Part shown: positions 46,720 through 52,883 of the stretch, piece by piece
Position numbering within the stretch: the stretch's first letter is position 1
Layout: the number at the start of each line of letters is the position of its first letter
Origin: Chlamydiales bacterium
GTDB lineage: Bacteria > Chlamydiota > Chlamydiia > Chlamydiales > JAAKFR01
DNA length: 64,000 nucleotides
NCBI GenBank assembly: GCA_020831465.1
Contig: JAFIGI010000059.1
Location: forward strand, 1,357 to 65,356
Direction of reading: 5' to 3'
Position numbers and translations under genes: made by a program
The notes under the pieces: model-generated
Told to the model about the DNA's origin: nothing
The model's input: only the letters and a program-made list of their open reading frames with translations
The model's database searches: none

Positions 46720-47823
46720 ATGATTCGATACTTTGAAGGAATGGAAATAGTTGCGCAATTAGAAGAGTGGGCATGTGTAAATTCCTATTCACGCAACTCT
46801 CTGGGCCTGGAAAAAATGATGCAGCTCGCGCAAAAAGCTTTTTCCGTTCTGGAACCTGATGAGTTGCGCCTCTTGCCCATCGGCTTGTCGCTGACGAAAA
46901 GAAAGGCCCTCCCTTTCCGTATTTTTTTAGGTGGACATCTCGATACTGTTTTCCCAAAGGACCACCCTTTCCAAAAAGTCAGATACCTCGATGAAAAGCG
47001 GCTGCAAGGTCCGGGAGTTGCTGATATGAAGGGGGGGATTCTCGTCATGCTTCATGCCCTGGTTGAATTTGAAAATTCAAAGGAAGCGAAAGAGATCGGC
47101 TGGGAGATCTTCCTCAACCTCGATGAGGAGATCGGCTCTCCCTATTCGACCCCCTTTTTGCAAGAATGCAGCAAAAGATGCAGGTTTGCCTTGATTTTCG
47201 AACCGACTCTTCCCGATGGTTCTTTGGTAAGTCGAAGGAAGGGGTCGGCTAATTACCTCGCCGTCAGTAAGGGAAAAGCAGCTCATGCAGGGCGCCATCC
47301 TAGCGAGGGTAAAAATGCCATCTATCCTTTGGCTCGCTTTATTGCCTCCATTGAAGCTTTAAATGAAGGGGATAGACTTGTGAACGTGGGCATGGTTAAG
47401 GGAGGGGGCCCTCTCAATATCATTCCCGATTATGCTGAGGCGGGGGTAAACGTGCGTTCTCACGATGACCTCGAATCGCTGCTGCGAAAAAAAGCTGACC
47501 AAGCGGGAATTACGCTGAAACAACTCTCCTACCGTCCCCCTAAGCCCTTTGACGAGAAAACAGAAGCTCTATTTAACTTGCTTAAAGAATGCGGAAAAGA
47601 GCTCGCGATGCCCATTGACTGGAAGGAGACCGGAGGGGTGTGCGACGGAAATACGTTTGGGGCGGCCGGTATTCCGACGATCGACACTCTCGGGGTGGAA
47701 GGAGGCGGGATGCATACGGAAAATGAGTTTGTTTATCTCCCCAGTTTAAAGAAAAAAATCGAATTAACTGCCTCCCTCTTAAAAAAACTATCACGAAAGA
47801 GCCCATTATGGCCGACCGCCTAG
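46720..47823 (+). CDS. M20-family metallopeptidase/deacylase (carboxypeptidase G2 / ArgE-DapE-like); candidate desuccinylase of the AST operon
   Basis: GGHLDTVFP, GPGVADMKGG and NLDEEIGS are M20 metal-ligand motifs, and a dimerisation-domain insert is present. The stop overlaps the next gene by 16 nt. Confidence 0.78.
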   Translation: MIRYFEGMEIVAQLEEWACVNSYSRNSLGLEKMMQLAQKAFSVLEPDELRLLPIGLSLTKRKALPFRIFLGGHLDTVFPKDHPFQKVRYLDEKRLQGPGVADMKGGILVMLHALVEFENSKEAKEIGWEIFLNLDEEIGSPYSTPFLQECSKRCRFALIFEPTLPDGSLVSRRKGSANYLAVSKGKAAHAGRHPSEGKNAIYPLARFIASIEALNEGDRLVNVGMVKGGGPLNIIPDYAEAGVNVRSHDDLESLLRKKADQAGITLKQLSYRPPKPFDEKTEALFNLLKECGKELAMPIDWKETGGVCDGNTFGAAGIPTIDTLGVEGGGMHTENEFVYLPSLKKKIELTASLLKKLSRKSPLWPTA

Positions 47824-49178
47824 TCGCAGATTCTATTTACGAAGATCCCGATTTTCAAACAGCTACGCGCAAAATTCTCAATAGTGTCGCCAGGCATAGC
47901 GATAAAATTACCGGAATACGTCCATCTCAGAGTGCCCTTGCAATCAGTTATGAAAACATCATCAAAGCCTTCAACTCCTACAGGGGAATTGATCTCTTTT
48001 ATCCCTATCTTGGAAGCGGCGCGGGTAATGGGGCGCTTGTCGAACTTGCCGACGGAAGCGTTAAATACGATTTCATTAGTGGAATCGGGGTCCACTTCGG
48101 CCACAGCCATCCGGCGATGATCGCAGCCTCCCTGGAAGCTGCGGTTGAAGATATCGCGATGCAGGGAAATTTGCAGCAAAACCGCTGTTCTTACGAATTA
48201 ACTCAGCTTCTTGTGAAGGCATCCCAGCTGCCGCACTGTTTCCTGACAACATCGGGTGCGATGGCGAACGAAAACGCGCTCAAGATCGCCTTTCAGAAAA
48301 AGGCGCCTGCTCATCGCATCCTAGCCTTCGAGCATTGCTTCATGGGACGCACTCTCGCTCTTTCTCAGATCACGGACAGGCCCGCATTCCGCGAGGGGCT
48401 TCCTCATCTGATCCCTGTCGACTACATCCCCTATTACGATTGGCGCGATCCGATGGGGAGTACCGAGAGAGCGCTGGCCGCTCTAAATACCCTTCTTTCC
48501 CGCCATCCGGGAAAATATGCCTCTATGTGCTTCGAGTTGATTCAAGGCGAAGCGGGTTGCTACCCAGGGAAACATGAGTTTTTTGTCGAGATTATGCGCA
48601 AACTGAAAGAAAACGGAATCGCGATTCTTGTCGATGAGGTACAGACATTCGGACGGACAGAAAATCTCTTCGCTTTTCAGACTTTCAGGCTTCAGGAGTA
48701 TGTCGATATCGTGACGGTCGGAAAGCTCCTCCATTTGTGCGCAACGCTCTACACGAGCGCATTTCGTCCAAAGCCGGGATTAATTGCGCAGACCTATACC
48801 GCTTCGACAAGTTCAATCCACGGAGCGAAAGCAATCGTGAACTCCCTTCTAAATGAAGGTTATCTGGGCCGCAATGGGAAAAACATGCAAATCCGCAGGA
48901 GAATTGTCGGTCATCTGGAGCGGATTGCAGATAAATACCCCGGCCATTTCGAAGGTCCCTTTGGACATGGACTCATGATCGCCGCAACGCCCTTTAAAGG
49001 GAACCGCGAGAAGGTTATCGCTTATGTGAAGGCGCTTTTCGAGGCAGGGGTGATTGTTTTTATCGCCGGCTCAAATCCGACTCGTCTTCGCATGTTGGTT
49101 CCGGCAGGCGGGATCACCAACGAAGCAATTGATGAAGTCGGGGGGCTCTTAGAAGAGGTGCTGGTCAAATGTCTTTAG
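47808..49178 (+). CDS. astC: Class III PLP-dependent aminotransferase; succinylornithine transaminase role inferred from context
   Basis: TSGAMANENALKIA, ILVDEVQTFGRT and the PLP-lysine context VDIVTVGK are present. It is flanked by and overlaps AST genes. It diverges from E. coli AstC/ArgD, so the symbol is contextual. Confidence 0.7.
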   Translation: MADRLVADSIYEDPDFQTATRKILNSVARHSDKITGIRPSQSALAISYENIIKAFNSYRGIDLFYPYLGSGAGNGALVELADGSVKYDFISGIGVHFGHSHPAMIAASLEAAVEDIAMQGNLQQNRCSYELTQLLVKASQLPHCFLTTSGAMANENALKIAFQKKAPAHRILAFEHCFMGRTLALSQITDRPAFREGLPHLIPVDYIPYYDWRDPMGSTERALAALNTLLSRHPGKYASMCFELIQGEAGCYPGKHEFFVEIMRKLKENGIAILVDEVQTFGRTENLFAFQTFRLQEYVDIVTVGKLLHLCATLYTSAFRPKPGLIAQTYTASTSSIHGAKAIVNSLLNEGYLGRNGKNMQIRRRIVGHLERIADKYPGHFEGPFGHGLMIAATPFKGNREKVIAYVKALFEAGVIVFIAGSNPTRLRMLVPAGGITNEAIDEVGGLLEEVLVKCL

Positions 49179-51627: not shown

Positions 51628-52883
51628 AAGAAGTCAACTTCGATGGCCTTGTCGGCCCGACCCATAATTATGCGGGTTTATCCTTTGGAAACCTTGCCTC
51701 GATGAAGCATCGACTGCACATCTCTAATCCCAAGCAAGCGGCCCTGCAGGGGCTCGATAAAATGAAGCGCGTCATGGATCTCGGAATCATTCAAGGCGTA
51801 CTGCCGCCACCAGAGCGCCCCGCGGTCGCCTTTTTACGCTCCATTGGATTTACGGGAAGCGACGCCCAAGTGATCGAGAAGGCTGCTAAATCGGCGCCTA
51901 CGCTTCTGCAAGCCGTCTCTTCAGCTTCTTCGATGTGGCGCGCAAATAGTGCGACGACGACTCCCTCCTGCGACAGCTTTGACGGACGGGTCCATCTAAC
52001 CGTCGCGAACTTAAGCACGCAGTTCCATCGGAGTTTGGAAGCGCAGGAGACACTTGCGCTCTTTCGTTTCCTCTTCGCCGACCCAGAAACATTCGCAATC
52101 CACCCTCCTCTCCCCTTTCCCGACGAAGGAGCCGCAAACCACATCCGATTCTGCCTCTCTTACGAATCGAAAGGAACTCACCTCTATGTCTATGGACGTG
52201 ACCTCTATACCCAAGAGGCCCATTTGTTTCCGGCGCGGCAAACACGCGATGCATCTGAAGCCGTCGCCCGCATCCACGGTGGAGCTGCGGTTTTTGCGCA
52301 ACAAAACCCGATCTTGATCGACAAGGGAGTCTTTCATAATGATGTGATCTCTTGTGGAAACCGCGAGACCTTTCTCTATCACCAAGAGGCTTTTGTCAAC
52401 ACTGAAGAGGTGATCAAGGAAATTCAAAAATACTGCCCCGTCAAGCCGATCAAGATTGAGCTCTCTGTTGAGGAAGCTGTAAGAAGTTACTTCTTCAATT
52501 CCCAACTCCTGACCCTTCCCGATCAAACCCGCCTCCTCCTTGCTCCCGAAGAGTGCCGGGAGCTTTCACTCGAATGGCTCCCTTTCCCCGTCGATTTCAT
52601 CAATATTAGGGAGAGCATGCAAAACGGAGGAGGACCCGCTTGCTTGCGCCTTGCGATTCCTCTTACGAAAGAAGAGATTGGAAAAATCCATCAACCGATC
52701 TTTCTTACTCAGCATCTATATGTTGAATTAAAAGAGTGGATCGAGAAGCATTACCGCGACAGGCTGGCTCCTGAGGACCTAGGTGACCCGGCACTTCTTG
52801 AAGAATCGAGAGAAGCCATCGCCGCCTTATTTAAGATACTCAAAATCAAAGAATTCGCGCCCCAGCCTCTTTCATATCTTTGA
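51624..52883 (+). CDS. astB: N-succinylarginine dihydrolase
   Basis: Strong collinear matches to E. coli AstB include EVNFDGLVGPTHNYAGLSFGN, SSASSMWRANSATTTPS.DS.DGRVHLTVANL..QFHRSLE, DEGAANH, PARQTRDASEAVAR, QGVFHNDVI, FNSQLL and ESMQNGGGPACLRL. Confidence 0.93.
   Translation: MKEVNFDGLVGPTHNYAGLSFGNLASMKHRLHISNPKQAALQGLDKMKRVMDLGIIQGVLPPPERPAVAFLRSIGFTGSDAQVIEKAAKSAPTLLQAVSSASSMWRANSATTTPSCDSFDGRVHLTVANLSTQFHRSLEAQETLALFRFLFADPETFAIHPPLPFPDEGAANHIRFCLSYESKGTHLYVYGRDLYTQEAHLFPARQTRDASEAVARIHGGAAVFAQQNPILIDKGVFHNDVISCGNRETFLYHQEAFVNTEEVIKEIQKYCPVKPIKIELSVEEAVRSYFFNSQLLTLPDQTRLLLAPEECRELSLEWLPFPVDFINIRESMQNGGGPACLRLAIPLTKEEIGKIHQPIFLTQHLYVELKEWIEKHYRDRLAPEDLGDPALLEESREAIAALFKILKIKEFAPQPLSYL

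Follow-up and report, generated by a model that had tools for sequence, protein, structure and literature searches.

A Predicted Arginine Succinyltransferase Operon With an M20 Hydrolase in Place of AstE in Environmental Chlamydiota

Gene Content of the Arginine Succinyltransferase Locus

The analyzed stretch of 64,000 nucleotides, referred to below as the window, spans positions 1,357 to 65,356 of contig JAFIGI010000059.1 from the Chlamydiales bacterium assembly GCA_020831465.1, and contains a five-gene cluster assigned to the arginine succinyltransferase (AST) pathway of arginine catabolism. The open reading frame (ORF) listing of the window confirms five plus-strand ORFs at 46720-52883, with exactly the coordinates at which they were first read (Table 1). 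Consecutive genes overlap by 16, 10, 4, and 4 nt in the 5' to 3' direction, and the last two junctions have the form ATGA; thus, the tightly packed block reported in the preliminary description is reproduced. The overlap of stop and start codons is compatible with translational coupling of the five genes, although it does not prove it. The start of the first gene may lie at Met8 (46741), as in its closest homologues. The upstream edge of the operon is formed by a small divergent gene, and the downstream edge by the convergent gene pncA, which overlaps the 3' end of astB by 38 nt.

Table 1. Genes of the predicted AST operon (window coordinates).
Gene product	Position	Strand	Length and matching models
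Metallohydrolase of the M20 family (PRK07338 subfamily), putative N-succinyl-L-glutamate desuccinylase in place of AstE	46720..47823	+	367 aa; NF005602, PF01546, PF07687
Class III (pyridoxal phosphate, PLP) aminotransferase, distinct subfamily; proposed N2-succinylornithine:2-oxoglutarate transaminase	47808..49178	+	456 aa; PF00202
AstA, arginine (or arginine/ornithine) N-succinyltransferase	49169..50173	+	334 aa; PF04958, TIGR03243
AstD, N-succinylglutamate 5-semialdehyde dehydrogenase, NAD-dependent	50170..51627	+	485 aa; NF006992, TIGR03240
AstB, N-succinylarginine dihydrolase	51624..52883	+	419 aa; NF009789, PF04996

The assignment of the last three genes to the families of AstA, AstD, and AstB, as originally claimed, is a direct outcome of profile searches, in which each protein exceeds at least one curated family cut-off. 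AstA matches PF04958 with 340 bits and TIGR03243 with 302 bits (cut-off 284), AstD matches NF006992 with 673 bits (cut-off 514) and TIGR03240 with 649 bits (cut-off 579), and AstB matches NF009789 with 553 bits (cut-off 452) and PF04996 with 550 bits. The AST pathway is best known from Gammaproteobacteria. Compared with the astCADBE operon of Escherichia coli and the aruCFGDBE operon of Pseudomonas aeruginosa, the chlamydial locus has the same internal order A-D-B and clear homologues of the three enzymes (35, 48, and 47% identity to E. coli AstA, AstD, and AstB, respectively), and it shares with the E. coli operon a compact arrangement of overlapping genes. In contrast to both operons, it is missing AstE and has an M20 hydrolase of the PRK07338 subfamily at its 5' end instead, its aminotransferase belongs to another class III subfamily, and the host is an intracellular chlamydia.

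The genome is a metagenome-assembled genome (MAG) of 1.80 Mb in 69 contigs with a completeness of 94.3%. The closest homologues come, by name, from Chlamydiales or Chlamydiae MAGs, and the window itself contains chlamydial markers, namely a match to the model of the chlamydial-type methionine aminopeptidase and a gene of the CT847 family. Judged by these sequences, the source organism is an uncultured environmental chlamydia.

Absence of AstE and Its Complementarity With the M20 Hydrolase

The absence of succinylglutamate desuccinylase AstE from the locus, which had been noted at the outset together with the need for a genome-wide search, is observed directly for the whole assembled genome: no match to PF04952 (the AstE/AspA family) or TIGR03242 is present anywhere in its 1.80 Mb. 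Across a phylum sample of 400-401 Chlamydiota genomes from 212 genera, an AstE-like match was detected in only one of 401 genomes, where it lies on a 2.2 kb contig of an assembly with ~3% contamination. Of nine AstA-positive genomes that were selected irrespective of M20, six encode only the M20 hydrolase, one encodes only AstE, two encode neither, and none encodes both. AstE was above the cut-off in none of four additional M20-bearing proteobacterial genomes. The control genomes follow the same pattern, since E. coli encodes AstE but gives no PRK07338 match, whereas Caulobacter has AstA and a PRK07338 match and no AstE. Thus, among the tested genomes with AstA, the M20 hydrolase and AstE are mutually exclusive.

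AstA was identified in 97 of 400 phylum genomes, representing 73 of 212 genera and many families of the Genome Taxonomy Database (GTDB), and the PRK07338 hydrolase in 94 of 401; 92 genomes have both. All seven mismatches, five genomes with AstA only and two with M20 only, come from assemblies that are fragmented or incomplete (50-370 contigs). Where a single contig carries both genes, they usually have the same orientation and a spacing of ~2.5 kb. None of the 29 small Chlamydiaceae-like genomes has AstA, and three further large families of the sample lack it as well. Of 20 chlamydial clusters from 19 families that were surveyed for gene order, 14 have the full, uninterrupted arrangement M20-aminotransferase-AstA-AstD-AstB. 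The AST pathway is thus not unusual for Chlamydiae, contrary to the preliminary interpretation; AstA is encoded in about a third of the sampled genera, with the same gene order in most families sampled. The variants include three loci with an insertion of 3-7 kb between the M20 and aminotransferase genes, one rearranged locus (M20-aminotransferase-AstD-AstB-AstA), one locus from which the aminotransferase is missing (M20-AstA-AstD), and two in which AstB or AstD/AstB are not in the fetched stretch; loci L144/L034 (genome G348), L136 (G176), L134, L141, and L143 are among these variant clusters.

Linkage of the M20 gene with astA is likewise a direct observation outside the phylum. A search of one genome per prokaryote species, with the M20 motifs alone as the query, returned 80 loci, and astA is located just downstream of the M20 gene in 76 of them; two of the four exceptions stop at a contig edge. 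The loci belong mostly to Sphingomonadales, Caulobacterales, and Parvularculaceae, and also to Legionella norrlandica, an Amphritea MAG, and a MAG labelled as Myxococcota. The M20 substitution is therefore not confined to this organism; many Alphaproteobacteria and Legionella-related genomes have it as their standard layout. In the L. norrlandica locus (L085; G405:C84:55357-56798), astD is in two pieces, the second of which contains a TGA codon, and may represent a frameshift or a pseudogene.

The M20 Hydrolase as a Candidate Succinylglutamate Desuccinylase

The first gene of the operon encodes a member of the PRK07338 subfamily (NF005602, 399.4 bits at a cut-off of 357; 379 bits in the six-frame search of the genome), which also matches PF01546 and PF07687. 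The AlphaFold (AF2) model of the protein has a predicted local distance difference test (pLDDT) score of 94.3, and its best match in the PDB is carboxypeptidase G2 (CPG2; 1cg2) with a template modeling (TM) score of 0.84, followed by DapE desuccinylases. CPG2 is also the best match by sequence (E-value 4e-22, 24% identity). When aligned with the CPG2 site, the protein has the complete ligand set (His, bridging Asp, Glu, Glu, and His), the catalytic Glu, and the His of the dimerization domain; the corresponding predicted metal ligands and catalytic residues H73, D102, E136, E137, E161, and H332, together with H189, are invariant in 46 homologues. Residue R272 aligns with Arg324 of CPG2, which we take to bind the glutamate carboxylate of the substrate and which we use as a lead only. 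R173, R192, and K275 are invariant across the subfamily and absent from CPG2, and N311 is invariant as well; speculatively, the three basic residues could bind an extra carboxylate.

CPG2 cleaves N-acyl-L-glutamates, a bond of the same type as in N-succinylglutamate, and DapE takes off N-succinyl groups, so that desuccinylation as such is within the reach of M20 enzymes. By analogy, the proposed reaction would combine the N-acyl-glutamate bond of CPG2 with the succinyl removal of DapE. The M20 hydrolase shares with CPG2 the two-domain fold with a dimerization domain, the metal ligands, and the arginine aligned to Arg324, whereas it differs from this enzyme in genomic context (AST rather than folate) and does not look like an orthologue of this secreted or periplasmic enzyme, which has a signal peptide and substrates of the folate type. 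Indeed, no hydrophobic segment resembling a signal peptide was seen, as judged by eye, at the N-terminus of the M20 protein, which is therefore probably cytoplasmic. Fold and catalytic machinery are also the same as in DapE and ArgE; however, the protein scores far under the cut-offs of these families, and its genomic context is different. Its proposed reaction is that of AstE, whereas its fold and family are unrelated to those of the AstE/AspA zinc hydrolases.

The conserved neighborhood with astA, the mutual exclusion with AstE, the intact catalytic residues, and the CPG2-like fold make the M20 hydrolase the strongest candidate for removal of the succinyl group, a view that is well supported by comparative evidence and that bears out the earlier suggestion of a plausible non-orthologous replacement of AstE. 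We therefore refer to it as a putative desuccinylase, a function predicted from context and phyletic complementarity. Another M20 protein encoded in the genome was considered as a stand-in for AstE and rejected, as it resembles a 461-aa protein of the dipeptidase type.

A Distinct Class III Aminotransferase

The second gene of the operon encodes a class III aminotransferase (PF00202, 148 bits) that is far under the cut-offs of the ArgD and AstC models (TIGR00707, 144 vs. 410 bits; TIGR03246, 94 vs. 610; NF009047, 86 vs. 630) and shares 27% identity with AstC of E. coli. The best PDB matches are distant acetylornithine aminotransferases, and the PLP-binding lysine and a DEVQT motif are retained. 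Its relatives, which share 53-84% identity and a length of ~455 aa, are nearly all chlamydial where they are named, and one is labelled Phycisphaeraceae. The contig with the latter label (L113) has an identical five-gene cluster with the aminotransferase in the same position, and this position is also kept in 19 of the 20 chlamydial clusters. By contrast, the M20 gene is not accompanied by an aminotransferase gene in the alphaproteobacterial loci, and only the Amphritea locus has one, distant and ArgD/AstC-like, just upstream. By its scores and relatives, the enzyme is not an AstC orthologue and would constitute a second non-orthologous replacement in the pathway. The genome encodes only two other class III enzymes, which were rejected as AstC candidates since their sequences, judged by eye, resemble BioA and HemL; thus, the operon aminotransferase is left as the sole plausible enzyme for the transamination of succinylornithine, with a substrate predicted from its context.

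Reconstruction of the Pathway

The catalytic steps of the proposed pathway are predicted from family membership and genomic context, as are the substrates of the M20 hydrolase and the aminotransferase. Arginine would be succinylated by AstA at the expense of succinyl-CoA, and AstB would strip the guanidino group to yield two molecules of NH3, CO2, and N2-succinylornithine. The class III aminotransferase would then pass the delta-amino group to 2-oxoglutarate, and AstD would oxidize the resulting semialdehyde to N-succinylglutamate with the formation of NADH. In the final step, the probably cytoplasmic two-metal PRK07338 hydrolase would split N-succinylglutamate into succinate and glutamate, the reaction catalyzed by AstE in E. 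coli. The genome encodes succinyl-CoA synthetase (sucC), the E1 component of 2-oxoglutarate dehydrogenase, and a protein of the glutamate dehydrogenase (GDH) type; therefore, glutamate can presumably enter the tricarboxylic acid cycle and succinyl-CoA can be regenerated. Fumarase and a dicarboxylate carrier of the DauA type are also encoded in the window. The GDH-type match is a glutamate/leucine dehydrogenase domain at G000:C62:20384-21151 within an open frame of 1023 codons, which may encode a large NAD-specific GDH.

Evolutionary History and Alternative Interpretations

Given that the AST pathway is so closely associated with Gammaproteobacteria, the operon might have been acquired recently by horizontal transfer from a gammaproteobacterium, with local recruitment of the M20 hydrolase, and the preliminary description had proposed to look for a donor of AstA and AstB. 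The appearance of the Parachlamydia succinylarginine dihydrolase among candidates for horizontal gene transfer (HGT) shared with Legionella (PMC3220658) would be in line with such a scenario. It is nevertheless very improbable and already contradicted by several observations. Chlamydial AstA proteins form one clade with a Shimodaira-Hasegawa approximate likelihood ratio test (SH-aLRT) support of 87, within which the window's own family holds with 98, and the chlamydial M20 proteins are all on one side of a branch with 96% support. In both trees, the next neighbors are sequences labelled Myxococcota and Phycisphaeraceae, followed by Proteobacteria; the two trees agree at a large scale, and in neither is the chlamydial group nested inside a sampled proteobacterial group, so that no recent donor lineage is indicated. 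Both trees were built quickly, contain many long branches, and have E. coli as their only canonical outgroup; they do not fix the root or the direction of an ancient transfer. The GC content of the five operon genes (0.49-0.53) and that of their third codon positions (GC3, 0.51-0.57) match the housekeeping genes of the window and look native. In addition, the operon occurs in 73 of 212 genera with its order kept, and in most families sampled it adjoins the same core gene for a protein of ~74 aa. Because the trees group the chlamydial sequences, the composition is native, and the gene order, the core-gene neighbor, and the wide presence are conserved, the evidence points to an old operon inherited vertically with losses. 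Of the outcomes that had been named in advance as speaking against the initial interpretation, the one that we find is thus a vertically inherited pathway that is widespread in the phylum, whereas a true astE is not found in the genome.

Several points weigh against the assignment of the M20 hydrolase to the last step of the pathway and of the operon to arginine. The substrate specificity of the M20 family is unreadable from the fold at 24% identity to CPG2, and no experimental test of any PRK07338 member, which the NCBI model names 'hydrolase' only, was found in the literature. The absence of AstE is not absolute in a MAG of 94% completeness, and the AstA score, which is under the cut-off of the arginine-specific equivalog TIGR03244 (279 vs. 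391 bits), does not separate arginine-specific from arginine/ornithine enzymes. Moreover, many Sphingomonadales (among loci L042-L112) have M20-AstA-AstB without an adjacent AstD (~45 sphingomonad-type loci), and no AstD-grade dehydrogenase was found genome-wide in one of them (G403, 2.4 Mb). In such sphingomonads, the M20 hydrolase could act on another substrate instead, for example N2-succinylornithine. These loci, together with the action of ArgE, another M20 enzyme, on N-acyl-ornithine, are the grounds for an interpretation in which the hydrolase desuccinylates earlier, on N2-succinylornithine or N2-succinylarginine, and the cluster also or instead delivers ornithine. We regard it as quite unlikely, because in chlamydiae the aminotransferase and AstD are part of the same overlapping unit, so that N-succinylglutamate should be formed and call for a hydrolase; besides, an AstD-grade gene is located elsewhere in two of the three sphingomonad genomes checked, and CPG2, the nearest solved relative, is glutamate-specific. 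It is also unlikely that the M20 protein is a general glutamate-releasing carboxypeptidase or N-acyl-amino-acid deacylase and a mere neighbor of the AST genes, in which case another, unrecognized desuccinylase would operate or the pathway would end at N-succinylglutamate. Such a role could be suggested for a subfamily known from sequence alone in a genome that encodes a second M20 protein; however, it would leave unexplained the linkage with astA across at least three phyla, the nearly one-to-one phyletic match (92 of 97 AstA-bearing and 92 of 94 M20-bearing genomes), the exclusion of AstE, and the agreement between the M20 and AstA trees. Thus, we consider it likely that the locus is a working AST catabolic operon in which the M20 hydrolase does the job of AstE, and that this layout is old and vertically inherited in environmental Chlamydiota.

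Relation to Published Descriptions and Implications for Annotation

The HGT candidate mentioned above is an entry in a table of a 2011 paper (PMC3220658), and no discussion of AST in chlamydiae beyond this entry for Parachlamydia AstB was found in the full-text literature, a coverage that does not extend to subscription journals. Within the same coverage, which includes the paper on GapMind for carbon sources, no description of an M20 succinylglutamate desuccinylase was found. The preliminary remark that no description of AST in Chlamydiae was known is in line with this search; on the other hand, the pathway genes themselves are common in the phylum. The AstE-less layout with M20 is apparently an undescribed variant of the pathway, common and old rather than a local oddity.

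More broadly, we tentatively propose that the PRK07338 hydrolases may represent an undescribed non-orthologous N-succinylglutamate desuccinylase that completes AstE-less AST pathways in Chlamydiota, many Alphaproteobacteria (Caulobacter, sphingomonads, and Parvularculaceae), and relatives of Legionella, that a new class III subfamily replaces AstC in the chlamydial form, and that the pathway was present early in environmental chlamydiae; for this combined proposal, our confidence falls somewhat short of even. If it is true, an annotation gap would be filled for proteins named 'hydrolase', 'carboxypeptidase G2', or 'glutamate carboxypeptidase' in thousands of genomes, and pathway tools that require AstE would call AST incomplete in such genomes. 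For chlamydial biology, the proposal indicates that glutamate, NADH, and ammonia can be obtained from arginine in about a quarter of the sampled phylum genomes, with the Chlamydiaceae-like pathogens not among them (0 of 29).

Neighboring Genes and Other Features of the Window

The small gene divergent from the M20 gene (46426-46650 on the minus strand, listed as an ORF at 46426-46758) encodes ~74 aa with the core motif C-Y-V-L-I-T-C...G-x-M-x-V-E-M-x-Y-E-G-D, matches no Pfam family, and is single-copy in the genome. It adjoins the M20 gene in most chlamydial loci, is carried by 350 of 400 phylum genomes, and is present in all 29 small Chlamydiaceae-like genomes, which are devoid of AST. Its core distribution, including genomes that do not have the pathway, ruled it out as a sixth component or regulator; the gene looks like a landmark outside the AST system that encodes a phylum-wide core protein. 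A scan for promoters and terminators gave no higher counts of sites than shuffled sequence, and the best-scoring promoter-like site (46384-46412) is separated from the operon by the small divergent gene and probably does not drive it. On the other side, pncA and pncB for NAD salvage occupy window positions 52846-54886 on the minus strand, convergent with the AST operon.

Elsewhere in the window, the plus-strand gene at 38206-39123 encodes a response regulator that resembles PleD and has a diguanylate cyclase domain of the GGDEF type (TIGR00254, 139 bits). Two stretches of low GC content, at 6001-10000 and 60001-62000, have values of 0.37-0.40 compared with ~0.49 elsewhere, and the second of them contains CT847-like genes.

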